Of a stretch of DNA of 50,875 nt, positions 2,972 to 20,489 are shown piece after piece. Source of the DNA: an uncultured Methanosarcinales archaeon (GTDB lineage Archaea > Nanobdellota > Nanobdellia > Woesearchaeales > DSVV01). A model generated the notes under the pieces. The model did not search any database. It had not been told where the DNA came from and worked only from the letters and a program-made list of their open reading frames with translations. Location of the stretch: the NCBI GenBank assembly GCA_964593285.1, contig CAZQHZ010000001.1, positions 66,124 to 116,998 on the forward strand. Reading direction: 5' to 3'. Each line of letters opens with the position of its first letter. Within the stretch, counting starts at the first letter, position 1. The translations under genes and the position numbers were made by a program.

Positions 2972-3055
2972 GATATACAAATAATTTGATTTATTAATGC
3001 TGTGTGGCTATAATTTTTAGAAAATTATTTAATATTTGAATTTTACTAATATTTC

Positions 3056-3403: not shown

Positions 3404-3482
3404 ATATTGGTTTTTCATTTTTTTAGTTGTTTTTTTCAGTACTCCAATTTATTTAAAAATAATTTGATTTTTCAATTCTTGT

Positions 3483-4652
3483 ATGGAATCAAAAAATAAA
3501 TTGTTTAACTTAGATAATTTTACACCATTAATTTTTTTAGCATCACTTGGTGCAGGTGGGATTGCTGTAATGCCTTTTGCATTTTTGCAATATACATTTT
3601 TCACGGGAGATGGTTTAATTGCAATTAAGCATTTAATGCATGGATCTAATTCTTTACTGCAAGAATCATTTTTTCGTTTACTTGAATCTATTATGATTAT
3701 TTTTTCATTAATACATATAGTTTTATCTGTTGTCTTTTTTATAAAATTATTTTTTTGGTTAAAAACTAAAGAATACAATTCTTTTGTTAACAATCCGCTA
3801 AAAAATGCAGGTATTTTAGTTCCCTTTATATCAATATTAATGACTATGAATGTATTTATTGGGCCTATACGTTTCTTTATACCATGGTTTGCAGAAAATT
3901 TACAATTATTAATGTTTCCTGCTTTTTTATTTTGGATCTTTTTGTTTATTTTGCTTTTAAGGCTTGATATAAAATTGCTTAAAATTTCATTTATTCAAGG
4001 TTTTGATGTTGATAAAATAAGTTTTGGCTGGCTTTTACATCCATTTGCATTATCAATGCTTAGTGTTGTTGGAACTGGAATTGCTGCTATGGCTAAAAAT
4101 AGTAATATAGCGCATCTAGCAGCATTTATGTCTTTAATTTCACTTTCAATGGGTATTTTTTTATTCATAGTAAAAATTATTTCAATTTTTAAAAGCCATT
4201 TTAATCAAGTTGGGCTTCCACAAAGACAATTTTTACCATCTTTTTTAATGGTAATACCAATTGTGACCTTGTTTGCAATAAGTGCATTTAGATTTGGACA
4301 TTACCTTGAGCATCAGTTTAATTATTCACTTGGTCCATATTTTATGATTGTCACTTTAGGTGCTTTTGCTTTTGAAATGTGGTATTTATTTTTTGGACTT
4401 GCAATTTTAAAAGAATTTTTTTTAAAGTATTATTTTAAGAATGAATATTATGTAACTTTATGGGGGCTTATTTGCCCAATTGTTGCATTTGGTGTACTTG
4501 GAAGTTTTGTTTATAGTACTTTTCTACCAAGCATTATTTTATATATTTTTGTGCTTTTAATTATTTTAATTGCAATTATATTTTATTTTGATTTATTTTT
4601 TAGATTTAATAATTGTTTATTTAAAAGAAAAAAAAATATCAATTGTATTTAA
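3483..4652 (+). CDS. Polytopic membrane protein, about 10 TM (TsoY-like / TDT-like)
   Basis: About 10 hydrophobic segments. The N-terminal PLIFLASLGAGG resembles the TsoY family as I recall it; function unknown. Confidence 0.6.
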   Translation: MESKNKLFNLDNFTPLIFLASLGAGGIAVMPFAFLQYTFFTGDGLIAIKHLMHGSNSLLQESFFRLLESIMIIFSLIHIVLSVVFFIKLFFWLKTKEYNSFVNNPLKNAGILVPFISILMTMNVFIGPIRFFIPWFAENLQLLMFPAFLFWIFLFILLLRLDIKLLKISFIQGFDVDKISFGWLLHPFALSMLSVVGTGIAAMAKNSNIAHLAAFMSLISLSMGIFLFIVKIISIFKSHFNQVGLPQRQFLPSFLMVIPIVTLFAISAFRFGHYLEHQFNYSLGPYFMIVTLGAFAFEMWYLFFGLAILKEFFLKYYFKNEYYVTLWGLICPIVAFGVLGSFVYSTFLPSIILYIFVLLIILIAIIFYFDLFFRFNNCLFKRKKNINCI

Positions 4653-4673
4653 TTTTTTTAATTTTTTTCTTTA

Positions 4674-4754
4674 ATTTTTTAAACTTCACTAATATACAAA
4701 TGTCCAGAAAAATCTCTTAGCACAATACGTCCTTGCTTGTTATTAATTTTATTT
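4674..4754 (-). repeat. Displaced copy of the 3' end of the MtrA-ThyA gene (putative att site, left island boundary)
   Basis: 73/81 nt identical to 17191..17271 in direct orientation. The minus strand reads NKINNKQGRIVLRDFSGHLYISEV* against NKINKKRGHIVLTDFSGHLYMSEV* in the gene. Confidence 0.92.
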
Positions 4755-4835
4755 TACTTTTATGTGATAATTTTTAATATATTTAAAAATTGGCTAAAAT
4801 ATGTTTTAAAAAATTTGGTTTTGATTAATTTTATA

Positions 4836-5057
4836 GTAAGTATAAAGTCAGGTATAAAAAAAAGCAATATCTTCAAAACTTTTTATGATTTTATTAAAGG
4901 TTCTGGGTTCTCGTATGGAGTTCTATCACTAGCGTTCAAAAGTTTATAATCTTACGAGATTATAAACCAACCCCTCGCAAGCGAACTATATTTCTTGTTA
5001 TAACAAAGTTCTGACCTTATGATATTGTCTTTTTTCAAATATAGACTTTATACTTAC
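4836..5057. mobile_element. 222-bp MITE, IS66-like ends
   Basis: Perfect 14-bp terminal inverted repeats GTAAGTATAAAGTC (4836-4849) and GACTTTATACTTAC (5044-5057). 8-bp direct repeat ATTTTATA on both flanks (4828-4835, 5058-5065). Subterminal AAAAAAG(A)CAATATC at both ends. GTAA ends with an 8-bp target duplication are IS66 hallmarks. Confidence 0.8.
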
Positions 5058-5106
5058 ATTTTATAGTAAATTTTTTATACTTTAAATATACTTTCATAAA
5101 AATAAT

Positions 5107-5658
5107 ATGGAAAATCCAATAAAACTTACTGAAAATGAAAAAAAAGTTCTCAAGAAATTAATTTGTGATAGTAGGATGAATGATACAAAAATTGCAGAAA
5201 GTAATTCTATTTCTCAACAAGCAGTATATCAAATAAGAAACAGATTAGAAAGTTTAGGAATAATTGAGGGGTACTGTCCAATAATTAATTTTAAAAAAAT
5301 TGGCTTAAATATAATGTATATAATTGGAATAGAAATTTTGCCCTATATGTGGGAAGAATTTAAAGAACATGAAATTACAGAAAAACTCAAAGATTTACCT
5401 TTTGTTTTAAAACTTATAAGATTGCCTTCTACAGATGTTTCATATATTGCAATTCTTGGATTTAAAGATATAAAAGATCGAGAACTGTTTTCAAGTAAAA
5501 TAGAATCCAAATTTTCTAAAAAAATAAATATTGTCTGGTCCTATACAACTTATTCTGAAAATTATATGGGAAAAAATAAATTAAGTAGTATAGATTATGC
5601 TCTTAATAAGAACGAATTAGATTTTGATAAAATAATTGATAAAATTAATAAAAAATAA
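5107..5658 (+). CDS. Lrp/AsnC family transcriptional regulator
   Basis: LTENEKKVLKKL..DSRM..TKIA..ISQQAVYQIRNRLESLGIIEGY..INFKKIG HTH, followed by a RAM-like domain. Confidence 0.85.
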   Translation: MENPIKLTENEKKVLKKLICDSRMNDTKIAESNSISQQAVYQIRNRLESLGIIEGYCPIINFKKIGLNIMYIIGIEILPYMWEEFKEHEITEKLKDLPFVLKLIRLPSTDVSYIAILGFKDIKDRELFSSKIESKFSKKINIVWSYTTYSENYMGKNKLSSIDYALNKNELDFDKIIDKINKK

Positions 5659-5661
5659 AAA

Positions 5662-5949
5662 TTATTCTCTTATATAATAACCAAAAATTGTATCTCTCAT
5701 TAAAGTACCTCGAACAAGCACTTCTTCACCTTCATCAGGAATATCATCAGAAACTACACCTATTTTTTCATCATCATCAACAATTAAATAACCTGAAAAA
5801 TCTCCAATGTCTACAGATCCTTCTACTATACCTCTAACACTTACTCTTTCACCAATATACTCTTCACTTTTTATATCTTCAATATTTTGAGTAGCACACC
5901 CAGCCAATAAAACAAACAAAAATAAAAAAATAATAAAATATATTTTCAT
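5662..5949 (-). CDS. Small lipoprotein with OB-fold
   Basis: Lipobox LLAGC; GERVSVRGIV and GEEVLVRGTL strands; GGAGG ribosome-binding site. Confidence 0.7.
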   Translation of the reverse strand: MKIYFIIFLFLFVLLAGCATQNIEDIKSEEYIGERVSVRGIVEGSVDIGDFSGYLIVDDDEKIGVVSDDIPDEGEEVLVRGTLMRDTIFGYYIRE

Positions 5950-5971
5950 TTTATACCTCCAAAATAATTTT

Positions 5972-6169
5972 TTATTTATTTACTGCAAAATAAATCATAT
6001 ATATAGCTGAAAGTCCGACAAGTACATATACAATATTTTGTAATGTAGGTATTGTTCCAAAGATTGCTTCAACAAAATCAAAATTAAAAAATCCTACAAG
6101 ACCCCAATTTAATCCACCAACTATTACTAAAACTAACGTTATCCAATCTAATGTATTTTTATTTGTCAT
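5972..6169 (-). CDS. DUF378 small membrane protein
   Basis: LVIVGGLNWGLVGFFNFDFV..IFG and IVYVLVGLSA signature. Confidence 0.88.
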   Translation of the reverse strand: MTNKNTLDWITLVLVIVGGLNWGLVGFFNFDFVEAIFGTIPTLQNIVYVLVGLSAIYMIYFAVNK

Positions 6170-6216
6170 AATATCCCCTCCGTTTTTAACGCGTAAAAAA
6201 TCATTTTACGCAAAAA

Positions 6217-6468
6217 TTAAGATTTTAAAATAGTCATCAATTTAGATGTTTCTTTTGTAACATTTACATTTTGAAAACTGCCATCTTCACGATGAACTAT
6301 AACCTTGCCGTTTTCATATTTTTGAGTTATATCAAAAGCATGTGCTATAGCATTCATTTTTAAATCAAATATTTTAGATGGTTGTTCGCTATTTTCGGCT
6401 CTAACACCCCATCTCCCATCAGATGGTACAACGTGTTGTATTTTTGTTTCAACTTCTATTTTAATCAC
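6217..6468 (-). CDS. DUF2188 domain protein
   Basis: QHVVPSDGRWGVR..S..F..K..AI..A and VIVHREDGSFQ. Confidence 0.8.
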   Translation of the reverse strand: MIKIEVETKIQHVVPSDGRWGVRAENSEQPSKIFDLKMNAIAHAFDITQKYENGKVIVHREDGSFQNVNVTKETSKLMTILKS

Positions 6469-6527
6469 CTCGTATCATAGTTTATTTATATTAATTATTT
6501 ATGTAACATTAATCTTTAATAACAAAT

Positions 6528-6968
6528 TCAAGTTTTTTTTTGAGCTGCAAAATCAAATAAATTCTCAATTTCAGGTGGTAGTGTTGCTTTTATATTATTT
6601 ATTTCTCCTTGATCAATATGTTTTTGCATGACATAAAATATTGTTTGTATAACATTTTCTGGATTAATTTTAGGATCATTATTAAAATATGAATGCACCC
6701 TACTAATAAATGTCATTTTATCTAATTTTTTAGGATTATCTTTAGGAGTCCAATTATTATAATAAATTCCTTTAATAATTAGTGGAAGCTGAGCACCCAA
6801 ATGGGTGAGATTTTCAATAGTTAATCTATCTCTAAGAGTATGCATAGTTCCATAAAGGGCAATGTAAGCCTGGTTATAAGTACATTTAAGTTCATATTTT
6901 ATTTCTTTAATCCAAATATTAAAATCATGAACTCCTTTTTCTACACTACTAATATGTGAAATAGTCAT
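6528..6968 (-). CDS. DUF2267 domain protein
   Basis: AY.AL..TMHTLRDRL....HLGAQLP.IIKGIYY..W and ID.GEI..IK.TLP. ATG at 6968 follows a GGTGA ribosome-binding site. Confidence 0.85.
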   Translation of the reverse strand: MTISHISSVEKGVHDFNIWIKEIKYELKCTYNQAYIALYGTMHTLRDRLTIENLTHLGAQLPLIIKGIYYNNWTPKDNPKKLDKMTFISRVHSYFNNDPKINPENVIQTIFYVMQKHIDQGEINNIKATLPPEIENLFDFAAQKKT

Positions 6969-7010
6969 AATAATCACCTACAAATATTTTTAAAAAATAA
7001 AAAAAATTGA

Positions 7011-7667
7011 TTATATTTCTTTAATATATACATAATCAGTTTTTGAACTCAACCTTCTAATACCTCTAAAAAGCTGTGCTTTAACTGTATAAATACCTTT
7101 CATTTTAGGGATAAACTCAAATGTACGCTCCTTTAATTCGTTTGGAGCTAACGTATCTAGAGATATTAATTCTACCTCTTCTATTTCCCCATCAGGAGCC
7201 TCAATCCAAGTTTCTAAATCTAAATCTTCAGTAGCTTCTTTAGCGGATATTAAAACATCGCATTTTATTGTATCTCCTATTATTGATCTAGGATTTCTTG
7301 TAGCAAACAAACTAATAATTTCTGCTACTTGAGTAGATACATTTATTAACATATCAGGTGTTTCCCAGTAAAACAGTTCATCGTCCTTATTACCAACCAT
7401 TGATACATAAACTTGTGTTGAAAAATGCACATTTATTCTAAAATAAAGATTTACTTCATCATCTGGTAGCAACAAAGGTATATATTTAGCAAAGTCCCTA
7501 ATTTCTAAACCTAATGTATCAACAGAATTTAAATGTATATCTAAATTTTTTAATGTATTTTGGCTTATATTTTTTAAAGTTAAAGTAAGCCATCTCTCTC
7601 CAGGATCAACAACTTCTGGAGTTATTTCAAATTCTACGCCTTTTCTTATTCTTCTCATTTTTTTCAC
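7011..7667 (-). CDS. Hypothetical protein with two beta-sandwich (Ig/CARDB-like) domains
   Basis: 218-aa ORF with alternating beta-strand pattern (LTLTLKN, GIYTVKAQL); start uncertain. Confidence 0.55.
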   Translation of the reverse strand: MKKMRRIRKGVEFEITPEVVDPGERWLTLTLKNISQNTLKNLDIHLNSVDTLGLEIRDFAKYIPLLLPDDEVNLYFRINVHFSTQVYVSMVGNKDDELFYWETPDMLINVSTQVAEIISLFATRNPRSIIGDTIKCDVLISAKEATEDLDLETWIEAPDGEIEEVELISLDTLAPNELKERTFEFIPKMKGIYTVKAQLFRGIRRLSSKTDYVYIKEI

Positions 7668-7708
7668 CCCACAAAAAAATATATTGGTAATAATACATTT
7701 TGTTAAAA

Positions 7709-7874
7709 TATAAAAATTATTTCTAGTAAATTACAAAAATTAAATAAAAATATGTTGTAATTTACTGATTCTTAAAAATAAATTAGAAATAAACTTAATT
7801 ATTTTTTTGATATTTTTGTAATTTACATTTTTTTTATAGTATTCTTTTGTATAATACTAGGAATGCTTTTTATA
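7709..7874. promoter_or_regulatory. Divergent promoter with four phased GTAAWTTAC-type boxes
   Basis: Boxes at 7726, 7757, 7818 and 7849 (last is GTATAATAC), spaced 31/61/31 bp. Each outer box lies 10 bp from a TTTTATA box (7709-7715 minus, 7868-7874 plus). Confidence 0.75.
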
Positions 7875-7910
7875 AAATAAATAGCTATATTATTATTAAG
7901 GTGATTTTTT

Positions 7911-8384
7911 ATGAAAGAAACAAGTAAATCTATTTGGAAGGAAATAATGTCATTACAAAATCAAATAGATATGTTGTTTGAAAATAGTTATTTAGAAGAG
8001 TATCTTGGAGCTAGTAATTTATTAAAAAAAGGAAATATAACACCAGAAAACTATAGAAAACCTATTTCTAATATTCATGAAACAGATACCAAAATAATTG
8101 CAGAAATAGAAATGCCTGGAATGAATAAAGAGGATATAGATGTAGAAGTAGATGATAATACACTGAAAGTTAAAGCAGAAAAAAAACAAGAAATCAAGGA
8201 AAAAGATAAAAAAGAAAGTTATTCTTATAAGCGAGATTTTTTAGGATTTTATAAAAAATTTTTATTACCTGAAAATGTTGATTCACAAAAAGCTAAAGCA
8301 GAATATAACGAAGGAATATTAAAAATAAATCTTCCAAAAATTGAAATTGAAAGTTCAAAAAAAAACCGCTTAAACATAAAATGA
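7911..8384 (+). CDS. Small heat shock protein Hsp20
   Basis: P.SNIHETD...EMPGMNKEDIDV and LPENVD...AKAEYNEGILKINLPK alpha-crystallin domain. Confidence 0.95.
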   Translation: MKETSKSIWKEIMSLQNQIDMLFENSYLEEYLGASNLLKKGNITPENYRKPISNIHETDTKIIAEIEMPGMNKEDIDVEVDDNTLKVKAEKKQEIKEKDKKESYSYKRDFLGFYKKFLLPENVDSQKAKAEYNEGILKINLPKIEIESSKKNRLNIK

Positions 8385-8409
8385 TTTTTTATTTTTTTAA
8401 AAAAATAAA

Positions 8410-10140
8410 ATGAAAACCAACAAAAATATTGCAAAGCTTTTTGATGAAATGGCTATACTTTTAGAATTAGAAGGTGTTGAATGGAAACCTCAAGCTTATA
8501 GGAAAGCTTCTAGAAATATTAATAACTATTATATGGATATAAATGAAGTATATAAAAAAAAAGGTATCAAAGGTTTGCAAAAAATAAAGGGTGTAGGGGA
8601 AAATATATCTAAACACATAGAAGAATATTTGAAAACTAATCAAATTAAGAAACTTAAAGATATGAGAAAAAAATATCCTAAAGAAATAATGGATATTTCA
8701 ACACTTGAAGGTTTAGGGCCAAAAAAAATAAGATTTCTTCTACGAAAACTAAATATTAAATCTAAAAAAGATCTTGAAAATGCAGTTAAAAATAAACAAA
8801 TAAGAAATTTAGAAGGCTTTGGAGAAGTAACAGAAAAAAATATACAACAATCATTAAATCTTCATAAAAAGAAAAAAGGGAGAATGTTATTAGATCAAGC
8901 AACGAGGATATGTAATGAAATCATAAACTATCTAAAAAAAGAAACAAACATAAAAACAATTAATTATGCTGGATCTATTAGAAGAATGAAAGAAACTATA
9001 GGTGATATTGATATTTTAGCTATAAAAATAAATGCTGATAAATTAATTAATGCTTTCACAAATTTTAAAGATATAAAAAAGGTCATAAGTAAAGGACAAA
9101 CAAAAAGTTCAATAATATTAAATGAAGATAATATTCAAGTTGATTTAAGGATTATTCCAAAAGAAAGCTATATAGCGGCACTTCAATATTTTACCGGAAG
9201 TAAAGCACATAACATTGAATTAAGAAAAATTGCTTTAAGCGAGGGATATAAATTATCTGAATATGGATTATTTAAAAAAAAAGATAATAAAAAAATTTCA
9301 TTAAAAAATGAAAAAGAATTATATAAAAAATTGGGTCTACAATACATCCCTCCAGAAATTAGAGAAAACCGAGGAGAAATAGAATTAGCTAAAAATAATA
9401 AAATTCCTAAACTTATCAGACACAGTGACATTAAAGGAGATTTACATATACATACTACTTATAGCGATGGTTTAGATACTATTAAAGATATAGTAGATAA
9501 TGCAAAAAAAAAGGGCTATCGATATATAGCAATAACTGATCATTCAAAATCAAGAAAAATTGCAGGAGGACTTAGTGAAAAAAAACTTAAAGAGCAATGG
9601 AAGGAAATTGATAAAATTAAAAAAAATATAAGTATAGAAGTATTAAAAGGTGCTGAAGTAGATATATTAAAAGATGGAAAATTAGATTATTCAGATAAAA
9701 TACTAAAAAAACTTGATTTTGTAATTGGAAGCATTCATCAAAATTTCAAAATGCCAAAAAAAGATATGACAAAAAGAATAATAAAAGCACTCAAAAATGA
9801 AAATCTACATGCACTAGGGCATCTTACGGGAAGAATGATTAAAAAAAGAGAACCTTATAATGCAGATTATAACAAAATTTTTCAAGTTGCAGCAGATAAT
9901 AATAAATTAATAGAAATTAATTCACAACCACAAAGACTAGATCTTAATGACGATTTTATATATAGAGCAAAAAAAAAAGGAGTAAAATTCATAATCAATA
10001 CAGATTCTCATACAAAATCAAATTTAAATTTTATAAGATTTGGAATAGGACAAGCAAGACGTGGCCAATTGAAAAAAAGTGATGTAGTTAACACAAAATC
10101 ATTTAGCCAATTAAAAAAGGTTTTAAAAAATGAAGTATGA
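8410..10140 (+). CDS. polX: DNA polymerase X with PHP domain
   Basis: HhH motifs, GSIRR..ETIGDIDIL, QVDLR, YFTGSKAHN, PPEIRE; PHP motifs DLHIHT..SDG, ITDHS and NTDSH. Confidence 0.95.
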   Translation: MKTNKNIAKLFDEMAILLELEGVEWKPQAYRKASRNINNYYMDINEVYKKKGIKGLQKIKGVGENISKHIEEYLKTNQIKKLKDMRKKYPKEIMDISTLEGLGPKKIRFLLRKLNIKSKKDLENAVKNKQIRNLEGFGEVTEKNIQQSLNLHKKKKGRMLLDQATRICNEIINYLKKETNIKTINYAGSIRRMKETIGDIDILAIKINADKLINAFTNFKDIKKVISKGQTKSSIILNEDNIQVDLRIIPKESYIAALQYFTGSKAHNIELRKIALSEGYKLSEYGLFKKKDNKKISLKNEKELYKKLGLQYIPPEIRENRGEIELAKNNKIPKLIRHSDIKGDLHIHTTYSDGLDTIKDIVDNAKKKGYRYIAITDHSKSRKIAGGLSEKKLKEQWKEIDKIKKNISIEVLKGAEVDILKDGKLDYSDKILKKLDFVIGSIHQNFKMPKKDMTKRIIKALKNENLHALGHLTGRMIKKREPYNADYNKIFQVAADNNKLIEINSQPQRLDLNDDFIYRAKKKGVKFIINTDSHTKSNLNFIRFGIGQARRGQLKKSDVVNTKSFSQLKKVLKNEV

Positions 10141-12199
10141 AGAATTAAAAAAAAAGTTGAAAAGTAAAAATTCTATAATTAAATTTAACTCTATAAATAG
10201 TTTAAATGAAAAAGAAGCAAAAAAAGAAATGAAAGCACTTGAGGATGCAATAAATTATCATGATGAACTATATTATAAAAAAAATAAGCCAAAAATATCA
10301 GATAATACTTATGATCAATTATTTGAAAGACTTGAAAATTTAGAAAAAAAATTCCCTCAATTAAAATCAAAAAACTCTCCAACAAAAAAAATAGGTAAAG
10401 AACCAAAAACTACTTTTAAAAAAATAAAACACACAAAACCTCTTTTAAGTTTACAGGCTACAGCAAAAAAAGAAGATATAAAAGACTTTCTTAAATTCGT
10501 TAAAAAAAATACAACAAATACTAATTATATTTTAGAACCAAAATTTGATGGATTTTCTATAGAAATAATATATAAAAATGGAGTGTTTGCATATGGTGCA
10601 ACTAGAGGGGATGGATTTATAGGAGAAGATATATCAAGAAATATTAAAACTATTAAAACAATTCCAAAGAAGTTAGCTAATGATTCTATTAATTTTTTAT
10701 CAATTAGAGGAGAAGTTTTTATTAATAAAAAAGACTTTCAAATGTTAAATAAAAAAAGAATTCAAAACAATAAAAAAGAATTTTCAAATCCAAGAAATGC
10801 AGCAGTTGGCCTAATGAGGCAATTAAATTCTAAAAATGTTGAAAACATTCCATTTAAAGCAATATTTTATGAAATAATAAAAATAAAAAACCAAAAAATA
10901 AAAAACCAAAATGAAGCATTACAATATTTAAAAAAATTAAATTTTAATGTAAGCTCAAAAAATAAAATTATAAAATCCTATGAAAAAATAATTGAAAAAA
11001 TAATAAGATATTATAATAATTTTGAAAAAATTAGAGATGATTTAAACTATGAAATAGATGGAATTGTAATAAAAGTAGATGAATATAAAGAACGTGAAAA
11101 ACTTGGAAGGAGAGAGAAAAATCCAAGATGGGCAATTGCATGGAAATTTCCACCAAAGAAAGAAATAACAACATTAAAAGATATAGTAGTTCAAGTTGGA
11201 AGAACAGGAATCTTAACACCAATAGCACTTTTAAATCCTGTAAATGTTGGAGGAGTTACAATATCTAAAGCAACTCTTCACAACCAAGATTATATTCAAC
11301 AGAAAGGATTTAAAAAAGGAGATAAAGTAAAAATTTTAAGAGCTGGAGATGTTATACCAAGAGTAGATGAATTAGTAAAAAAAATTAATAAAAGCAAAAA
11401 AAAATTTAAACTTCCAAAAAAGTGTCCTGTCTGTAAATCAAATACAATTAAACAAGGAGCATATGTAATATGCCCAAATAGCTTATCATGTGATGCACAA
11501 TTAAAAGGTAGAATACAACATTTTGCATCAACTGAAGCTATGAATATAAGAGGTCTTGGAGAAAAAATAATTATTCAGTTGGTAGATAAATCATTAGTTA
11601 CAAAAATATCTGATCTATATGAACTTAAAAAAAAGGATTTTTTAAAATTAGAAGGATTTAAAAATAAATCTGCAAAAAAATTATACGAACAAATACAGAA
11701 TTCAAAAAATCCAAATCTAGATAGATTCATATATGCACTTGGTATAAGATTAGTTGGTCTTAAAAATGCAAAAGTACTTGCCCATAATTTTAAGTCCTTT
11801 GGTAGATTAATGAAAGCATCAAAGAGAGAGCTTAAAAAAATAGAAGAAATAGGAGATGAAATAACAAAGAGTGTGTTAAATTTTTTTCAAAATAAAAAAA
11901 ATAGAAATGTCATAAAAAAATTAAGAGAAAACGAAATTAAACCAAAGGAATTTAAAATTTTAAAAACTCAAAAATTAAAAAAAAAGAAATTTGTAATAAC
12001 TGGTATTTTGCGAAATTATTCAAGAAAAGAAGCAAAGGAAGAAATAGAAAAAAGAGGAGGGCATGTAACAGAAAACATTAGTAAAAATACAGATTATTTA
12101 ATCGTTGGAAAAAAACCTGGATCAAAATTAGATGATGCAAAAATAAACAATATTAAGATTATATATGAAGAAGAATTTGAAAAAATATTAAAAAAATAG
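10130..12199 (+). CDS. ligA: NAD-dependent DNA ligase
   Basis: EPKFDG adenylation motif, ATRGDG..GED, NPRNAA.G, DGIVIK, QVGRTG, RAGDVIP, Zn finger CPVC..C..C, C-terminal BRCT. Overlaps the end of polX. Confidence 0.96.
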   Translation: MKYEELKKKLKSKNSIIKFNSINSLNEKEAKKEMKALEDAINYHDELYYKKNKPKISDNTYDQLFERLENLEKKFPQLKSKNSPTKKIGKEPKTTFKKIKHTKPLLSLQATAKKEDIKDFLKFVKKNTTNTNYILEPKFDGFSIEIIYKNGVFAYGATRGDGFIGEDISRNIKTIKTIPKKLANDSINFLSIRGEVFINKKDFQMLNKKRIQNNKKEFSNPRNAAVGLMRQLNSKNVENIPFKAIFYEIIKIKNQKIKNQNEALQYLKKLNFNVSSKNKIIKSYEKIIEKIIRYYNNFEKIRDDLNYEIDGIVIKVDEYKEREKLGRREKNPRWAIAWKFPPKKEITTLKDIVVQVGRTGILTPIALLNPVNVGGVTISKATLHNQDYIQQKGFKKGDKVKILRAGDVIPRVDELVKKINKSKKKFKLPKKCPVCKSNTIKQGAYVICPNSLSCDAQLKGRIQHFASTEAMNIRGLGEKIIIQLVDKSLVTKISDLYELKKKDFLKLEGFKNKSAKKLYEQIQNSKNPNLDRFIYALGIRLVGLKNAKVLAHNFKSFGRLMKASKRELKKIEEIGDEITKSVLNFFQNKKNRNVIKKLRENEIKPKEFKILKTQKLKKKKFVITGILRNYSRKEAKEEIEKRGGHVTENISKNTDYLIVGKKPGSKLDDAKINNIKIIYEEEFEKILKK

Positions 12200-12219
12200 T
12201 TTAAAAAAAGGTGATAATT

Positions 12220-12804
12220 ATGAAAAAAGAATTTATAAAATATTTACAAAATAATGGTGTTGCATTAAATCCTAGAGTGGCTGAAGCATTTAACGCAATA
12301 AATAGAAAAGATTTCATGCTAGAAGGAGAATCTGAAATGGATATGCCATTTCCAATTGCAGGAGGACAAACAATAAGTCAGCCATATACTGTTGCATTTA
12401 TGCTCGACAAATTAGACATAAAAGAAGGAATGAAAGTATTAGATGTTGGAAGTGGAAGCGGATGGACAACAGCATTAATTGCACATATAATAGGCAAGAG
12501 AGGATATGTTGTAGGTGTTGAATTATTAGATGAACTTGTAAAATTTGGATCAAAAAATCTAAAAAAATACAACTTTAAAAATGCAGAAATTATAAAAGCA
12601 AAAAAAGACATTAAAGGCTTACCAGAAAAAGCACCATATGATAGAATACTAGTCTCGGCAGCAGCAACAACTGTTCCTGAAATATTAATTGATCAATTAT
12701 CAAAAGAAGGAATTATGCTAATTCCAGTAAATAATACTATACAACGGATAACAAAAAAAAGTCGTGAAATATGGCATGGATTTTCTTTTGTACCATTAAA
12801 GTAA
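12220..12804 (+). CDS. pcm: Protein-L-isoaspartate O-methyltransferase
   Basis: GQTISQP, VLDVGSGSGWT, APYDRILVSAA, FSFVPL. ATG at 12220 follows GGTGA. Confidence 0.93.
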   Translation: MKKEFIKYLQNNGVALNPRVAEAFNAINRKDFMLEGESEMDMPFPIAGGQTISQPYTVAFMLDKLDIKEGMKVLDVGSGSGWTTALIAHIIGKRGYVVGVELLDELVKFGSKNLKKYNFKNAEIIKAKKDIKGLPEKAPYDRILVSAAATTVPEILIDQLSKEGIMLIPVNNTIQRITKKSREIWHGFSFVPLK

Positions 12805-12856
12805 TTTACAACTTGCAAAAGGTTTTAATTATTTTTTACTAGAAATATCTTTTATA
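12801..12856 (+). promoter_or_regulatory. Island-type promoter of the PEBP gene
   Basis: GTAATTTAC at 12801; degenerate box ATTTTTTAC at 12831, then TAGAAATATC-TTTTATA. Confidence 0.65.
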
Positions 12857-12893
12857 TCGTAGAATATTAAAATAGAGAAATTAATAAATAGAG

Positions 12894-13364
12894 GTGAAAA
12901 AAATGTATAATTCAAAAAAATTAAAAATTACAATACCTGCTTATAAAAATGGAGAAGTAATACCAAAAAAATATACTTGTGATGGTGAAAATATAAACCC
13001 TAAAATAATAATAAATAATGCCCCTAAAAGTGCAGATACATTTGTATTAATATTTGATGACCCAGATGCACCAAATAATACATTTACACACTGGGTAGTA
13101 TTTAATATACCAGCACAAACAAATATTATTCTTGAAAACACAATACCTGGAATCGAAGGAGAAAATGATTTTAAGAAAACTAATTATTCAGGACCTTGCC
13201 CTCCTAGTGGAACACATAGATATTATTTCCATCTATATGCAATACAAGGAAAGTTATTGTTTAAAGAAGGAGCAAGCAGAAAAGAGATAGAGAAAAAAAT
13301 GCAAGATAAAATAATTGAAAGTGCATCTTATATGGGTAAATATGAAAGAATCAATGAAAGATAA
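12894..13364 (+). CDS. YbhB/YbcL family (PEBP/RKIP-like) protein
   Basis: IPKKYTCDG, DDPDAP..FTHWVVFNIP, YSGPCPPSGTHRYYF. The true start may be ATG 12903. Confidence 0.93.
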   Translation: MKKMYNSKKLKITIPAYKNGEVIPKKYTCDGENINPKIIINNAPKSADTFVLIFDDPDAPNNTFTHWVVFNIPAQTNIILENTIPGIEGENDFKKTNYSGPCPPSGTHRYYFHLYAIQGKLLFKEGASRKEIEKKMQDKIIESASYMGKYERINER

Positions 13365-13577
13365 ATTAATGTAATAAAATGTATGATTTATTTTAAAAAT
13401 TATTTACTAAAAAAATAAAGATGTGTAATGCAAAAAATTTAGTCAAGTAATAGAATCATCAATAGTAAATACATACATAAATAAAAAGTTTTTTTAATTA
13501 CTATATTAAAAGTATTTTCTGTTAATTTTTTTTAAAAATCTCAGCATTAAAAGTTTAGACTTTTATCAACTTTGAAA

Positions 13578-13778
13578 TTATCTTTTAAATAAGTCATTAT
13601 TTGAATTTCTACCGAAAAAATAATAAAAAATTGCAGTGATGATACTAAAAAATAGTGCTAAAACTATCCAAAAAATTTTCATCCCATTTGATAAATTTTT
13701 ATTATGTAAAAGCACATCATAAATTACCCATATCATACATATTATTGCTAGTATACTTATTATTTGTCCTATTACCAT
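13578..13778 (-). CDS. Small 2-TM protein (PLDc N-terminal-like)
   Basis: IWVIYDV......K.FW.....FF..I.AIFYYFFGR pattern. Confidence 0.7.
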   Translation of the reverse strand: MVIGQIISILAIICMIWVIYDVLLHNKNLSNGMKIFWIVLALFFSIITAIFYYFFGRNSNNDLFKR

Positions 13779-13827
13779 TTTTATCCCTAAATTTAGTATT
13801 AATTACAATTAATAAAAAAAATATTTT

Positions 13828-14013
13828 TTAAATCATCTCACCAGTATCTAATTTTTCATCTTCTTCTACTATTTCTGGTAAAATCTCTTCCTCTTCTATT
13901 ACTTCTTCGTCATCTATAAAATCATCTATTATTGAGTCTTCGGATACCTCATTTGTTTCGCAAGCTATAAGGGCTAAAAAGGATATTAATAATATTACTA
14001 TGAAATATTTCAT
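13828..14013 (-). CDS. Small acidic lipoprotein
   Basis: Signal peptide ending LIAC, then a D/E-rich tail; ATGA overlap with the upstream gene. Confidence 0.65.
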   Translation of the reverse strand: MKYFIVILLISFLALIACETNEVSEDSIIDDFIDDEEVIEEEEILPEIVEEDEKLDTGEMI

Positions 14014-14900
14014 TGTAAGCCACCTCTATTTGGTATTTTTTTATCTAAACCTTTTATTCTTTCACTAATGTTTTGTTTTACATCATCAGGTAATCTATCC
14101 TTTACTTCTTTTATTCTCTTTCTTGCTTTCTCTGTTATATCTTCTAAAACTTCTTCTTTTATTCTATTGACATTTTCTTTTGCATTCGTTTCTTGTTTTG
14201 TTGCTTCATCTCGCATGTTTGCTAATACTTCATTAGCTTGTTCATCTCTAACTTCTCTTACTAAATTCATGACCTCTCCTCTTATTTCTTGAGGTTCTAT
14301 TTCTTTGTTTCTTATTCTTTCAACTAAGTTTTCGCTAACAATTCCTTGAGCTTGTAAGTTTCTTCTGACTGTTTCTTCGTTGTGTGCCATAGCTTTTTCA
14401 TTTATGTTTTCTTGATATCTTGTAGCTACAATAGATTCTTGTGCTCGTTCATCTGCCACATTCCTAACTACTAAAACTTCATCTCCATCCACAATTATTC
14501 TAGCAGTATCTCTAAATTCTTTAGTTAGTGCTGATGCTTCTTGTTTAAAACTCATAAATGCTTCAATATTTTCTTCTCTTTCTGCTATTTCATATGTTGA
14601 TACTTCCTCTTTTAAATCTATTAAACTTATAAGAATTGCTTCTAGTTCGTCAATGGTTGGTTGAGTAACTTCTTCCTCAATATATTCAAGCACTGTTTCA
14701 CCTTTTATTATATTCATGTGTATTGCTCTTTCGAGTTGTAACAACCTCATTTCTGCACCAGGATTTGTTTCAAAAGGCATTATTTCCTTTACATCTATTT
14801 CTTGTTCAACTTCATTTGTTATATCTGGTTGTGCCATGGTTAATGGCAAAACTGATAATAAAGCAAAAACCACAATAAATGGTTTGATTATATTTTTCAT
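14010..14900 (-). CDS. Secreted acidic coiled-coil protein
   Basis: From ATG 14900 (GGTGA upstream): signal peptide MKNIIKPFIVVFALLSVLPLTMA, then an E/K/R-rich helical sequence. Confidence 0.7.
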   Translation of the reverse strand: MKNIIKPFIVVFALLSVLPLTMAQPDITNEVEQEIDVKEIMPFETNPGAEMRLLQLERAIHMNIIKGETVLEYIEEEVTQPTIDELEAILISLIDLKEEVSTYEIAEREENIEAFMSFKQEASALTKEFRDTARIIVDGDEVLVVRNVADERAQESIVATRYQENINEKAMAHNEETVRRNLQAQGIVSENLVERIRNKEIEPQEIRGEVMNLVREVRDEQANEVLANMRDEATKQETNAKENVNRIKEEVLEDITEKARKRIKEVKDRLPDDVKQNISERIKGLDKKIPNRGGLQ

Positions 14901-14960
14901 TTTTTTCACCTCACTAAAAATATTAAATAATATGTAATGATATAACATATGTTGTTTAAC

Positions 14961-14992
14961 TATAAAAGGGTTATTTAGTAAATTACAAGATT
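14961..14992 (-). promoter_or_regulatory. Island-type promoter (box 10 bp from TATA)
   Basis: Plus strand reads TATAAAA-GGGTTATTTA-GTAAATTAC (box at 14978). Confidence 0.7.
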
Positions 14993-15037
14993 TAAACAAA
15001 ATAAATTGTAAACCACGATTATTTTAATTGTTAAAAT

Positions 15038-15262
15038 TTATTTTTTTACCCAATTATTTCCTTGTTTAGTATATTTTTGTTTAACTGCTGACCAAGCAAC
15101 TTTATGTGCAACTTCTTCTCTAGAAGCGTTTCCTTTTCTATCTTCTGGATTTTTATATTGTTCCCATGCGTTATTATAAGCTTCTTTGTATATTTTTTGA
15201 GCATCTATTGGTAAATTATTTTTTACTAATTTTGGCAAATCTGATTCTTTTTTATAAGGCAT
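15038..15262 (-). CDS. chaB: ChaB family protein
   Basis: MPY....DLP..VK..LP..AQ.IYKEAYNNAWEQY...REEVAHKVAWSAVKQKY.K....W. Confidence 0.93.
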   Translation of the reverse strand: MPYKKESDLPKLVKNNLPIDAQKIYKEAYNNAWEQYKNPEDRKGNASREEVAHKVAWSAVKQKYTKQGNNWVKK

Positions 15263-15325
15263 TTTGATTCCTCATTTTAATATAATTAATAAAAAATTAA
15301 TTTTTAAGTTAATTTTTTACATTAC

Positions 15326-16450
15326 TTATTTGTTTTTATATTTACTTTCAAGTTGATTTTTTAATTTTTCAAATGATTTTCTAATTGCTATCATAATTTC
15401 CCAATCATCATCTTCTGAGGTTATTATAGCTCCTGGATAACTTAATTTACTAAAAACTTGAAATCTGCTTTTATTTCCTTCTTTTTGATGTTCTTTTATG
15501 TGTATATTAATTTTGAAAATATTTTTAAAATAATATTGTAATTTTTCAGCATAGTTTTCTACTGTGTTTTGAATATTTTTGGTCATTGTTTCATCTAAAT
15601 TGAGTTCTTTTAATCCTTTATAAAAAATATTACTTTGTTTGATTTTAAATATTTCAATTATAGATTTTAATGTTTGTTTAAGGTTAATTATACCTATATT
15701 TTTATTTGATGAATTTTTGACTAAAAGATTATAAGACTTTGTTTTTGAAAATAATTTTAAAACTTCATTAAATTTTGCATCTTTTTTTATTTTGTTTATA
15801 TTAGGTTCAATAAAATTTTCAATACTTAGTTTTTTTATATCTTTTAATTCTGTCTGATGAGTTTTTATAGGTGTATTTGGTACTTCTCCATGTTGTCTTT
15901 CAGTTATATGTTTTAGTATAAAATTTTTTAAAAGGTTTATAGTTGATATAGTTCCTATTATTTCTCCTTTATTTTCAACATATACTTCTCTAACTTTATT
16001 AATGTTCATAAAATGAATAACTTCTCCTAAAGTTGCACTCTGTTTTATTGTTACTAATCTATCAACGATATCATTTATTTTAAGTTTTAATTTAGGATTA
16101 TCTTTTAATAAATTGAATAATTCATACACATCAACAAATTTAATTAAATTATCTTTATCAAAGACTGGAAGAATAATTGAATTACTATCAATAAATTTTT
16201 GTGTAATTACAATTAAATTATCATCAAGATTTACTTTTGATACTGGTATTATAAACTGTTTTATTTTTGTTTTATTAGCACTTGGTCTTGAATTTAATAA
16301 TAAAAAATGTGATAGGTTTCCTTGTAACTCTTCAATATACACTTCACTAGCATTATTTTTTTTAAGCCTACCTATCACTTTTGAAACTATTTCTTCTTTC
16401 TTAGTACAAATTACAATTAAGCTCTCTTTCATATCTTTTGCGTTAATCAT
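15326..16450 (-). CDS. CBS-domain protein with C-terminal HPF/RaiA(S30AE)-like domain
   Basis: Four degenerate CBS repeats. C-terminal ~100 aa (YKGL..D..M..NI...VE.YAEKL..YF....INIHIKEH....RFQV..KL.YPG.II..EDDDWE...AI..SFEKL..QL) match the HPF pattern. Confidence 0.72.
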   Translation of the reverse strand: MINAKDMKESLIVICTKKEEIVSKVIGRLKKNNASEVYIEELQGNLSHFLLLNSRPSANKTKIKQFIIPVSKVNLDDNLIVITQKFIDSNSIILPVFDKDNLIKFVDVYELFNLLKDNPKLKLKINDIVDRLVTIKQSATLGEVIHFMNINKVREVYVENKGEIIGTISTINLLKNFILKHITERQHGEVPNTPIKTHQTELKDIKKLSIENFIEPNINKIKKDAKFNEVLKLFSKTKSYNLLVKNSSNKNIGIINLKQTLKSIIEIFKIKQSNIFYKGLKELNLDETMTKNIQNTVENYAEKLQYYFKNIFKINIHIKEHQKEGNKSRFQVFSKLSYPGAIITSEDDDWEIMIAIRKSFEKLKNQLESKYKNK

Positions 16451-16465
16451 TTTTTATTTCAACGT

Positions 16466-16828
16466 TTATCTTCTTGCAACTGTTAAAATTGCTTTTATTG
16501 CAACTATTGCTGTAGCTGGTGCTATAAAAACATTTAATAGACTAAAAAATGTCGGTATTGCAGTCCATCCAAAAGCTAAATTATTAAGAATTGAACTTAA
16601 TGCTTGAAAACTTAATAAAAAAGCAATAGCTCCAATTAAGAATGTTTTTACTTCACTGGTTGCAATGTTTATTAAACCCACTAAAATACCCAATATTGCA
16701 ATAGTATAAATTGACCAAACAGGTACAACTGTTGCACTAAATAGTGCAATAACTATAGCTAATACTAATCCAACAATAAAAGATATTCTTCCAATCATAG
16801 AAATTTTTTTTTTATTGTATATACTCAT
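16466..16828 (-). CDS. Small 4-TM membrane protein
   Basis: Four hydrophobic helices, GILVGLINI...E...FL motif. ATG 16828 follows GAGGTGA. Confidence 0.7.
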   Translation of the reverse strand: MSIYNKKKISMIGRISFIVGLVLAIVIALFSATVVPVWSIYTIAILGILVGLINIATSEVKTFLIGAIAFLLSFQALSSILNNLAFGWTAIPTFFSLLNVFIAPATAIVAIKAILTVARR

Positions 16829-16866
16829 TTTAATTTTCACCTCAATATATAAACAATAGTTTATTA

Positions 16867-16923
16867 TATAAAAAAGATTTCTAGTAATTTACAAAAATAA
16901 AATAATATTTTTTAGTAAATTAC
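16867..16923 (-). promoter_or_regulatory. Island-type promoter with two boxes 31 bp apart
   Basis: TATAAAAAAGATTTCTAGTAATTTACAAAAAT (16867-16898) is nearly identical to 7709-7740; second box GTAAATTAC at 16915. Confidence 0.75.
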
Positions 16924-17195
16924 TATATCATATAATTTAGAAAATTTTAGATAGCATTTATTTTATAAAATTCTCATATTTTTTTAAGGTTATTTTTTAA
17001 ATTAAAAATTTTTTATAAAAATTATTTTATTTGCATATTAGATAATTTAATGTAAGCTATTTAAATTAATCTTTTATATTAATTAATAAATGTATTCAAA
17101 ATACAGAATATAAAAGATAATTAACATAATTTAAAAAATATTAACTTTTTAATTATTTATAATTTAAATTAAATATTAAAAGAAGTATTTATTTT

Positions 17196-18539
17196 TTAAA
17201 CTTCACTCATATATAAATGTCCAGAAAAATCTGTTAGCACAATATGTCCTCTTTTTTTATTAATTTTATTTGCAATATATTTTTGCAGGGTTGCAAGTGC
17301 ATATAAATTTAAAACAAACGCTCCTTCACCTTCAATTAATTTACCATCCTTTGTAATTGTTGCAAGATGGTGGCTTCTAAAAACAACATGCATTTCAAGT
17401 TTATTATCTCTAATTACCAGCCAAATAAAATTTAAACATGGTGGATTTTCATTTTCTAAATCATTTATTGGATCCCATAAACTTATAATACAGCGTCTTG
17501 TATTCTTATCCTTTTTTAAAACATTTATTGCTTTTTTTACTTGATTTCCCCATTTTTTAAAAATTCTATCATGATATGTATAAATAAAATCATTTTCGTT
17601 TTTTCCATTCATAAATTCATCAACATAATTTTCAATATATTCTTTTGAAAATTCTTTTGGAATTACTTTTAGTGCATCTTTTATTACAACGCTAAAACTT
17701 CTAGATTCCATTGTAATTATATTTCGTTGATCTTTAAACATAACTCCATTTTCATAAATAAATGCAGTAATCATTTCAAGTGCATCTTTTAGATTTTCTG
17801 CATTAACTTTTTGGCCAATAGGTAATTTTGAATATTTTTGAATAAATTTTACCTTTTTTGTAGTATTTGATAAATCTAAATTATATTGATTAAAAAATCT
17901 TGCACCATCATCATATAATAAATTATTCTTAATAACATTAGAATAAAATCCAAACTTGTCTAAAACTTTTTTTGCATTATTTGGTTCTTGAATTAATGAT
18001 TTAATTAATTCTTCTGCTTCTTTTAAATTTTTATTAGGATTAATATTTTTATAAACAACTAAATCACATTGTTTTCTAATTCTTTTAATTGCTGTTTTTG
18101 TAACTTGTGAAAATTTAGGATTTTGTGCTTTTGAATTTATAATTATATTGTTTTCATCAACACCAAATTTCCAAAAATTAGTTATTGCATCAACTAATAA
18201 ATGCCCATTGTCTTTATTATCAAATACAAATAAAACTAGTTTATTTACATTAGGATTTTTTAAAATATTAGAAAAGACATATTTTGTGCCATTTGTGGTT
18301 TTCCAGTAACCAGTTAAATATGCATAATTTGATATTTTTAAAAAAAAATCTTTAATTATTTTTGGTGGTTTATCAGTTTTCCAATTATAAATAAAACCTA
18401 TTGCAATATTAGATAAAAAATTCCCAACAATAACATCTTCACTATTAAAAAATTCTAAACAATGCTCATTTTTTGTTGGTTTTATTTTATAAATTTCTTT
18501 TTTTTGATATTTATCATAGCCAATTTTTATTTTTTCCAT
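17196..18539 (-). CDS. MtrA-like domain fused to an archaeal-type thymidylate-synthase domain
   Basis: N-terminal DVIVGN..SNIAI..G.WKT.NG...V.SNILKNPNV..L......GH......FGVD....II......F......AIKR.RKQ follows the MtrA pattern. C-terminal YTYHDRI, NQV, TRRC, LWDP, PPCL, FRSH and SGHLY follow ThyA. Confidence 0.8.
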   Translation of the reverse strand: MEKIKIGYDKYQKKEIYKIKPTKNEHCLEFFNSEDVIVGNFLSNIAIGFIYNWKTDKPPKIIKDFFLKISNYAYLTGYWKTTNGTKYVFSNILKNPNVNKLVLFVFDNKDNGHLLVDAITNFWKFGVDENNIIINSKAQNPKFSQVTKTAIKRIRKQCDLVVYKNINPNKNLKEAEELIKSLIQEPNNAKKVLDKFGFYSNVIKNNLLYDDGARFFNQYNLDLSNTTKKVKFIQKYSKLPIGQKVNAENLKDALEMITAFIYENGVMFKDQRNIITMESRSFSVVIKDALKVIPKEFSKEYIENYVDEFMNGKNENDFIYTYHDRIFKKWGNQVKKAINVLKKDKNTRRCIISLWDPINDLENENPPCLNFIWLVIRDNKLEMHVVFRSHHLATITKDGKLIEGEGAFVLNLYALATLQKYIANKINKKRGHIVLTDFSGHLYMSEV

Positions 18540-20489
18540 CTAAATAACTCCTTTATCAAACCAACCTGTAGTATATCCTTTTTTAATTTTTTTATCATTA
18601 AATTTTTTTTCTAAAATATTTTTATATATAGATAATAATTTACCTGAATTTTCATTTGATTCTAAATAAAAGTTATTAATGTTATTTTCATTGTATTTTT
18701 TTATTAAATTAAATAAACCAAGTTTTTTATTATTAATTAAATTATAGTAATTATTTTCTTTAATTAATTTAAATTTTCTGTTTTCATAATCTGTTAATAT
18801 ATTTTCTTTAAATTCATTTTTTATTTTCATCAAACTTATATTTCCATGAATATATACTAAAAAACCTTTGTTTTTTATTTGTTTTATTTCATTAAACGAT
18901 AATTCCATTGAAATTATTGGTGTTGCATTAAATTTTGTTTTATAAAAATTTATATCAATATCATTAAATGCATTAATTGAATAATCTAAATGGATATCTA
19001 AATTTAATTTTTTTTTATTTATATAATTCATTAAACCTAAATCTTTTGTTAAAATACCATGTAATTTATAATTTTTAATTAAAGAAAATATTTTTTTAAT
19101 TTCTTCATCATTTAATGGACCATTAATGAAACCATAAATTTTTGAATTTTTTATTTTTTCATTTAATGTTGAAAAATCCTTATTTAGTATATCAAAATAA
19201 ATTACATCAGGCTTTTTTTTATCTGCGTTAATTCCATCTTTTAGAGAACTAACTTTAATGTAAAATTTATTTTTTTTATCTTGTTTTTGATAAGAAAAAT
19301 TTTTATCAATTTCTTTTATGTAATTAATTTTGTTAATATTTTCATTTGGTGATTTTCTAAATGTAATTTCTTCTCCTAAATTTAATTTTTTCTCTCTAAT
19401 GCATGTTTGATATATATTTTGATTTTCTAAAAAAATATTATCATTAATAGTTATTTCATCATTTTTTTTAGCAAAATTAACAGAATTTTCATTAATTTTT
19501 ATTGCATTAATTTTAAACCTAACTAATTTATTATTTTTAATAATTGAAACAAAATCACCAATTTTTAAATTCTTATTAATTTTTATTTTTCCATTTTTTA
19601 CTTTTCCAATAATAATTCCTCTATTTCCGGGTAATTCATTTGAAATTATATTGTTTTCAAACATAAATCCTTTTGTAAAATTTCTATTAAAAATTTGTTT
19701 TAGTTTTTCAATTTCATCTTTATAATTTTTTGTTATGTTTCTATAATAATTATCAATTGCTTTTCTATAAGCAATAGTTACTTCTTGTACATAAAATTCA
19801 TTTTTCATTCTACCTTCAATTTTTAAACATTTAATTCCAAGATTTATTAATAAGGGAATTTCTTCAATTAAACATAAATCTTTTGTGCTAAGCGAATATT
19901 TATCATTATACATCTTTCTACAAGGCTGTGCACAAAGTCCTCTATTGCCCGATCTTTTTCCAATTATTGAAGAAAATAAGCATTTTCCAGATAATGAAAT
20001 ACATAAAGCTCCATGAACAAAAATTTCTGTTTCAAATTTTTTTGAAAATTTTTCTATTTCATTTTTTAATAATTCTCTTGGAAGAATAATTCTATCAACC
20101 TTTTCAAGAATTGAATATGTATTAAATAATCCACATTGTGTTGATAAATGTATTTTTAAATTTGGAAAATATTTTTTTATTAATGGAATAAAACTTTGAT
20201 TAGTTATAATAATTGCATCAGCTTTTGCTTTATTTATCAAATTTAAGTAATTAAAAAATTCATTAATTTCATTATTTTTTATTAAAGTATTTAATGCAAC
20301 ATATAGTTTAACATTTTTCAAATGACAATATTTAACAATATCATCTAATTGATTTATTTTAAAATTATCCGCATTAATTCTTGCATTAAATTTTTCAAGT
20401 CCAATATAAATACTATCAGCACCATTATTTACTGCAGCTCTCAAACAGTTAATATTTCCTGTTGGTGCTAGTAATTCAATTTTATCCAT
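18540..20489 (-). CDS. Peptidase U32 family Fe-S protein (RlhA/TrhP-like)
   Basis: ELLAP.G, GADSIYIG, HLSTQ, EIFVHGALC..SGKC...NRGLCAQPCR, LKIEGRMK; degenerate second U32-like half. Confidence 0.9.
   Translation of the reverse strand: MDKIELLAPTGNINCLRAAVNNGADSIYIGLEKFNARINADNFKINQLDDIVKYCHLKNVKLYVALNTLIKNNEINEFFNYLNLINKAKADAIIITNQSFIPLIKKYFPNLKIHLSTQCGLFNTYSILEKVDRIILPRELLKNEIEKFSKKFETEIFVHGALCISLSGKCLFSSIIGKRSGNRGLCAQPCRKMYNDKYSLSTKDLCLIEEIPLLINLGIKCLKIEGRMKNEFYVQEVTIAYRKAIDNYYRNITKNYKDEIEKLKQIFNRNFTKGFMFENNIISNELPGNRGIIIGKVKNGKIKINKNLKIGDFVSIIKNNKLVRFKINAIKINENSVNFAKKNDEITINDNIFLENQNIYQTCIREKKLNLGEEITFRKSPNENINKINYIKEIDKNFSYQKQDKKNKFYIKVSSLKDGINADKKKPDVIYFDILNKDFSTLNEKIKNSKIYGFINGPLNDEEIKKIFSLIKNYKLHGILTKDLGLMNYINKKKLNLDIHLDYSINAFNDIDINFYKTKFNATPIISMELSFNEIKQIKNKGFLVYIHGNISLMKIKNEFKENILTDYENRKFKLIKENNYYNLINNKKLGLFNLIKKYNENNINNFYLESNENSGKLLSIYKNILEKKFNDKKIKKGYTTGWFDKGVI

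Follow-up and report, generated by a model that had tools for sequence, protein, structure and literature searches.

The e14 element of Escherichia coli lies in the 3' end of a coding gene, icd, which is whole on one side of the element and is matched by a C-terminal fragment, icdC, on the other (PMC13626634; for the Islander principle, PMC4383910); this prophage excises upon SOS induction, and its icd-icdC chimera is functional (PMC13626634). Other islands lack an integrase and rely on host Xer acting at dif (PMC4383910). In E. coli, gene ends were duplicated over 109-950 bp when circularised DNA integrated through one RecA-dependent crossover (PMC3240628), and IS1549 and IS1634 are flanked by long direct repeats of target DNA that vary from 8 to 514 bp (PMC2266710). 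We analysed a window of 50,875 nucleotides (positions 66124-116998 of contig C1) from a Woesearchaeota (DPANN) archaeon with a tiny genome, a 38-contig metagenome assembly of 1.18 Mb that is 95.9% complete with a GC of ~23%. In this window, a segment of 12.4 kb, with 17 genes of predicted roles in stress and DNA repair, lies between two copies of the end of a gene that encodes an MtrA-like domain fused to a thymidylate-synthase-like domain (the MtrA-ThyA-like gene, or target gene). Judged from its sequence, the segment is an insertion and was probably acquired horizontally. It has no recombinase of its own, and the route of entry that we favour, at roughly even odds, is a single homologous crossover catalysed by the host within the last 81 bases of the target.

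The two copies of the repeat (4674-4754 and 17191-17271) are identical at 73 of 81 positions without a gap, or at 75 of 84 if the alignment is made 3 nt longer, and span the final 24 codons of the target gene together with its stop and the next 5 nt. On the minus strand the gene end reads NKINKKRGHIVLTDFSGHLYMSEV and the orphan copy reads NKINNKQGRIVLRDFSGHLYISEV, in frame and with a stop codon just upstream of the orphan. The genome contains just these two copies (BLASTN E 3.6e-26; next match 5e-5), and a crude estimate puts the probability of such a repeat by chance at ~6e-19. This confirms the repeat and the in-frame orphan that had been described in an earlier sequence-only reading of the window. 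It is very improbable that the layout is an assembly artefact or a local duplication without insertion. The junctions are known from the metagenome assembly alone; however, the copies differ at 8 positions, their longest identical run has 18 bases and contig C1 contains no N. The window DNA is present in microbial mat metagenome runs of two studies, and a run of the second study contains 0.95 of the sampled words from 3000-12900, left copy included; runs X5-X7, with 0.10 or less of the words, were left out of the evidence. Codon use and a palindrome, described below, also mark the inside as one foreign unit.

Analysis of codon use indicates that the 11 island genes of at least 100 aa lie at a distance of 0.173 from the genome, against 0.072 +/- 0.019 in 677 overlapping control blocks, one of which is as far off. 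In a leave-one-out comparison under an island-versus-host codon model, 13 of the 17 island genes score at least 0, and the flanking genes score -10 (tsoY), -17 (the target gene, with host-like codon use) and -29 (U32). A host-only codon model revealed a sharp right boundary, with the switch at the right-hand repeat copy. If the segment is removed, the target gene becomes convergent on tsoY with stops 26 bp apart, which is within the usual range of the 182 gaps compared (median 13 bp, 60% of them no longer than 30 bp). These results support the earlier proposal of an insertion bounded by the repeat. The comparison of composition inside and outside, suggested at the same time, held for codon use and failed for tetranucleotides, which alone do not set the island apart (7.5% of 265 windows are equally far; GC 24.3% vs 22.8%). 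Two features absent from the sequence-only reading were found inside the segment: a miniature inverted-repeat transposable element (MITE) of 216 bp (4839-5054) and seven copies of the palindrome GTAAWTTAC. The palindrome has 28 sites in the genome, and each of the 7 in the island lies within a gap upstream of a gene or at the edge of such a gap (binomial P 1.4e-8, a generous value since the island itself supplied the motif); in the related clusters, whose GC is higher, there is at most one site. Terminal inverted repeats are unconvincing, as the best alignment of the inner ends is matched by 11% of random pairs and a flush 5-bp match has P ~0.03. No tRNA target was found within the window, and a comparison of 2600-18600 with Rfam yielded no match up to an E of 1.

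To compare the orphan with working gene ends, we assembled a profile of 39 distinct homologue C-termini from 47 of the 49 homologue loci that hold the C-terminus, after dropping 2 without the anchoring motif. The orphan residues N5, Q7, R9 and R13, which are 4 of its 5 changed residues, occur in none of the 39, among which T13 is present in 33 and R7 in 27. The profile score of the orphan is 28.0, that of the gene 43.1, and no homologue scores below 37.3 (in-sample); in simulations of neutral decay, 10-26% of runs arrive at the score of the orphan. Only two of the 8 nucleotide differences are synonymous, which corrects the earlier mention of some such changes, and the remaining 6 are non-synonymous; the neutral expectation is 19% synonymous. 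The residues absent from homologues and the fit to neutral decay indicate that the orphan is a decayed copy and not a second working allele, and do not support the suggestion that a native C-terminus had been replaced by a foreign one. From their sequences, the two copies were probably near-identical at the time of insertion. The mismatches may cluster toward the 5' end of the repeat (P 0.07). The duplicated residues of the target align with the stretch of ThyA that ends in DTHIY, whose His and Tyr bind the nucleotide sugar, so that the gene end is probably needed. The genome also has ThyX, and the MtrA-ThyA-like enzyme therefore need not supply thymidylate. The nearest named records of the target protein are mostly from Woesearchaeota / Nanobdellota.

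The copies had been read as attL and attR. In such a scenario, a tyrosine integrase would have recombined a site-specific integrative element of the e14/icd type into the gene at the repeat's 5' end, the element would have supplied the new 3' end, and the integrase would later have been lost or would act in trans. We regard this relic as possible and rather doubtful. The geometry matches that of e14 in icd, since the repeat ends 5 nt past the stop, the gene is whole and a co-oriented 3' fragment is displaced; moreover, tyrosine-integrase proviruses target coding genes about as often as RNA genes (PMC13626063), and some islands depend on host Xer (PMC4383910). Unlike e14, the segment holds no integrase or phage gene, and its displaced fragment, unlike icdC, is not a working allele. 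That no integrase is encoded, as already noted from the letters, was confirmed by PF00589, PF00239 and PF07508 searches and by family scans, in which no resolvase or recombinase was found inside the segment either; the same scans found no virus, plasmid, virion, replication or conjugation/transfer gene. The terminal gaps of the island, 352 bp (216 of them the MITE) and 350 bp at 10% GC, have no integrase remnant, and because all 17 cargo open reading frames (ORFs) are open, the integrase alone would have been lost. The 15-bp block TTATTAATTTTATTT proposed as crossover core does exist, but the identical blocks along the repeat are 17, 5, 18, 11, 5, 2 and 15 bp long, which makes it the third longest, and it occurs 5 times in the genome; with the blocks of 17 and 18 bp also present, it is distinctive by position only.

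Recombinase genes elsewhere in the genome, for which a search had been advised, were found in part: there are 5 matches to PF00589, none of them on C1, and no resolvase, large serine recombinase or IS630-type transposase (PF13358), other transposase families not having been searched genome-wide. A XerA-like gene lies at the start of contig C5 (138-950, L048) and is split by a frameshift, so it could be a pseudogene or an assembly error, and degenerate Xer-like genes lie on C9 and C3. These three genes count in favour of the integrase relic. The locus resembles the integrase-free islands that use host Xer at dif in having no integrase of its own, and differs from them in that the target is a coding gene end, no dif-like inverted arms are visible by eye and the XerA-like gene is split.

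A screen of all 1021 genes of the genome for a copy of the gene's last 45 bases within 30 kb (score at least 45) gave 4 downstream matches, 0 upstream and 0 on the opposite strand. The downstream matches are the MtrA-ThyA locus, an archaellin paralogue, a GlmU-like gene on contig C7 and a 178-aa gene on contig C5. At C7:54074-57071 (L240), a 344-bp repeat of the GlmU-like gene end surrounds one 749-aa gene that has a pilin-like N-terminus and host-like codon use; the mismatches are confined to the first ~36 of the 344 nt, followed by 308 identical positions, and the alignment has a 1-nt gap. At C5:49377-50851 (L241), a 45-bp repeat of the end of the 178-aa gene surrounds an HTH-nucleotidyltransferase and a HEPN gene. 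Integrase, PolX and ligase genes are absent from both inserts. With the layout recurring at two unrelated genes with other repeat lengths, which a single site-specific integrase does not explain, with no integrase in the segment and with a 15-bp block that is not the longest, the attL and attR reading is not established.

Applied to 77 loci from relatives (1091 genes in 1.25 Mb), the same screen found 2 downstream matches, again with 0 upstream and 0 on the opposite strand. One of them (L102:1653-16069, also L064) is the end of an arginine decarboxylase gene, with an 81-bp repeat around 14.4 kb that holds an MtrA-ThyA homologue, an H+-pyrophosphatase, Dus, a radical SAM gene and four ORFs that were not family-scanned. 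The other (L106:13999-15115) is the end of a metallophosphoesterase gene, with a 73-bp repeat around a single Fic gene. Double target matches in L064 and L102 were considered as a second gene end and rejected, as in each a single gene is divided by an internal insertion. The target's own end was not found a second time in any of the 49 homologue loci (of 56) that hold the C-terminus. The gene-end pattern has 2 copies in the window's genome and no second copy in the 4 other pattern-positive genomes of 301, and viral contigs match neither the target alignment nor this pattern. The samples behind this tally and those for tsoY, DUF2267 and PolX include the genomes G138, G147, G208, G360 and G396, flagged as unpublished, on none of which singly any claim hangs.

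The three repeats of 81, 344 and 45 bp in this genome end 5, 29 and 5 nt past the stop, and this stop-proximal position has a combined P of 0.03-0.04 against random long duplication. This bears on a further alternative, in which a staggered break near the gene end took up foreign DNA. Filling of the gaps, for which the module's PolX and LigA are possible agents, would have duplicated the 81 bases in the manner of a long target-site duplication, only the events that kept the stop having survived. The island does encode PolX and a ligase, its repeat copies were probably near-identical at insertion, and IS1549 and IS1634 likewise have long duplications of variable length. Here there is no transposase inside, no convincing terminal inverted repeat and no PF13358 transposase in the genome, and the C5 and C7 inserts would have had to do without PolX and ligase. 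Such a capture would also place the stop anywhere in the repeat, whereas it is found in the last 6-14% in three of three cases (P ~0.03), and we consider it quite improbable. Repeats that end just past the stop are expected where homology ends as the gene neighbours differ. The varied targets, lengths and cargo, the missing integrase and the repeats that stop at the gene's stop fit host recombination better than a single site-specific enzyme. An integrase relic is likewise disfavoured by the variety of targets and repeat lengths, three of each in this genome, and by the viral contigs without the pattern.

Under host recombination, the module would have lain directly behind an MtrA-ThyA-like gene in a close relative. 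A fragment made of the module and the last 81 bases of the target would have entered the lineage and closed into a circle, and a single crossover by host RadA within the shared 81 bases would have left the gene whole, with a second copy of its end on the far side. A one-sided, homology-facilitated join instead of the circle crossover would give an identical product. The far copy would then have decayed by ~10%, which would hinder clean excision, and the MITE would have landed 85 bp inside the left end. RadA is present in the genome, and gene replacement directed by 35-40 bp of homology is described for S. islandicus (PMC6249222). The likeness to Campbell-type integration and homology-facilitated illegitimate recombination lies in the lack of a dedicated recombinase and in a gene-end direct repeat of variable length, 109-950 bp there (PMC3240628) and 81, 344 and 45 bp here. 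Those events were seen in laboratory bacteria with engineered donors, whereas the present case is natural and archaeal, with shorter homology and a putative role of RadA.

Several observations weigh against a host crossover at this locus. Homologies of 45-81 bp are short for RadA, and DprA was looked for in the genome and not found. Among the homologue loci there is neither a donor with the module beside the target gene nor an empty site, the nearest genomes available for comparison (27 of the same family) being of other genera. The empty site that had been predicted, with the ThyA-like gene convergent on the gene at 3483-4652, did not turn up in 61 relatives, 31 metagenome loci, 67 genome loci or 7 tsoY loci. 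The homologue loci reach at most 10 kb downstream (20 of 49 reach 9.5 kb) and are shorter than the island, so that recurrence at the MtrA-ThyA target is weakly excluded. The left boundary is blurrier in codon use, as tsoY also departs from the host (z -3.2), and its distribution is patchy (8 of 301 genomes). Finally, the conspecific protein P0018 differs from the target protein in the window only at K428T and K429R, the fifth and sixth codons of the repeat, which directly follow the 15-bp block; this suits a fixed crossover point, as an integrase relic would have, and has a chance of ~5% for one event in the last 24 codons. P0018 does not have the orphan's end and is thus not a simple excision product; the variant may reflect an exchange of the gene end, or two changes that arose by chance in an A-rich stretch.

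Most likely, the locus is a large example of a recombinase-free insertion style common in this group. Three such insertions in 1.18 Mb, one of them with 17 genes, suggest an ordinary route of gene gain for small symbiotic-type archaea. A new class of element is not defined by the single locus. Island finders of the Islander type look for an integrase and require a tRNA target (PMC4383910), and would therefore overlook such insertions. In the open-access literature we found no report of an MtrA-ThyA target or of such islands in DPANN; the island tables of TIGER/Islander or ProBord could list such sites. A wider view, which we consider unlikely, is that DPANN gain genes generally without recombinases, with the 3' end of almost any gene as landing pad, and that the island carries a transferable, self-regulated dormancy kit (ribosome hibernation factor, PolX and ligase, PCM, Hsp20, DUF2267 and an Lrp regulator with its own operator) whose PolX and ligase close the incoming circle.

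The coordinates of the locus are given in Table 1. Five of the 17 cargo ORFs have no family, and the Lrp/AsnC-type regulator is a candidate binder of the GTAAWTTAC palindrome. DUF2267 is rare in the order, above the cut-off in 10 of 401 genomes including this one, and PolX matches were found in 43 of 151 genomes. The best named relatives of LigA are bacterial (closest 62%), and the host's own ATP-dependent ligase sits on contig C10. We considered whether an essential gene locks the island in place and rejected this, as an ATP ligase and ThyX are encoded by the host itself. For the 296-aa protein, the ESM Atlas yielded weak leads only and the viral contigs no match.

Table 1. Features of the island and its flanks, with positions in the window
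Feature	Position	Strand	Remark
TsoY-family membrane protein (tsoY)	3483..4652	+	left flank; convergent on target gene at would-be empty site, 26-bp gap
Orphan (distal) repeat copy, decayed	4674..4754	-	last 24 codons, stop and 5 nt of MtrA-ThyA-like gene
Inserted segment, 12,436 bp, 17 ORFs	4755..17190	.	no integrase, nuclease, transposase or replication gene found
MITE, 216 bp	4839..5054	.	terminal repeat AGTATAAAGTC, TA on both sides; separate insertion, 85 bp inside left end
Lrp/AsnC-type regulator	5107..5658	+	
Lipoprotein-like ORF, 95 aa	5662..5949	-	without family match
DUF378 membrane protein	5972..6169	-	
DUF2188	6217..6468	-	
DUF2267	6528..6977	-	
218-aa protein	7011..7667	-	without family match; homologues in two other DUF2267 clusters
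Three GTAAWTTAC palindromes (7726, 7757, 7818)	7726..7826	.	divergent promoter region
Hsp20 small heat-shock protein	7911..8384	+	
PolX with PHP domain	8410..10140	+	
NAD-dependent DNA ligase LigA	10130..12199	+	
Protein-L-isoaspartate O-methyltransferase (PCM)	12211..12804	+	
GTAAWTTAC palindrome	12801..12809	.	upstream of YbhB/YbcL gene
YbhB/YbcL (PEBP) protein	12894..13364	+	
PLDc_N small membrane protein	13578..13778	-	
Acidic lipoprotein-like ORF, 61 aa	13828..14013	-	
Secreted coiled-coil-like protein, 296 aa	14010..14900	-	16 unnamed relatives, own cluster counted
GTAAWTTAC palindrome	14978..14986	.	upstream of 296-aa gene
ChaB family protein	15038..15262	-	
CBS + HPF/YfiA protein	15326..16450	-	architecture of archaeal ribosome hibernation factor HibA
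Small membrane protein	16466..16840	-	without family match
Two GTAAWTTAC palindromes (16884, 16915)	16884..16923	.	near right end
Gene-proximal repeat copy	17191..17271	-	working 3' end of target
Target gene: MtrA-like domain fused to thymidylate-synthase-like domain, 447 aa	17196..18539	-	host-like codon use

The product of 15326-16450 resembles HibA / AHA in its layout of a CBS module and HPF/RaiA, with 374 aa against 392 aa (PMC13324472). It differs in its setting, here a patchy, transferable cluster with PolX, ligase, PCM and DUF2267. The family names and the resemblance to HibA (PMC13324472) suggest that the module may serve stress survival or dormancy. Among 11 DUF2267 neighbourhoods in 10 genomes, 8 carry at least two more island families in shuffled order. 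These related modules also hold BON, PRC-barrel, DUF72, MscS and aldo-keto reductase genes, and two of them have an ATP ligase instead of LigA. The contigs of all 8 are free of PF00589 matches, a further point against an integrase relic, and no gene-end repeat was found, three of the contigs ending inside the cluster. The cargo, which recurs in shuffled form in other Woesearchaeales, points to a little-described, patchy stress/dormancy module with a candidate operator. A lone DUF2267 gene in another genome (G193:C10:4742-22051; L222, L223) lies between two weak PF00589 matches and is possibly part of an integrated element.

Of the 7 MITE copies in the genome, 5 are full length; those outside the window are at C3:52564, C5:43705, C8:29520, C9:14172, C11:1911 and C15:633. 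The family is preceded by GTA and mostly followed by TAC and has a strongly folded interior; a strong fold at 4840-5050 (z -4.4) corresponds to the window copy. Between this copy and the majority sequence there are 6 differences in 216 bases, against 8 in 81 between the repeat copies, and this lower divergence indicates that the MITE probably inserted later.

Outside the island, an Lrs14-type regulator and the TsoY-family gene form a pair (3056-4652) that recurs in another locus (L233). A long (AAT)n tract (2861-2998) lies between a UvrD-like gene and the Lrs14-type regulator, and similar tracts are present on many contigs. A second thymidylate-synthase-like gene lies behind a 535-aa winged helix-turn-helix protein at 42360-44631, and this pair recurs in L096.

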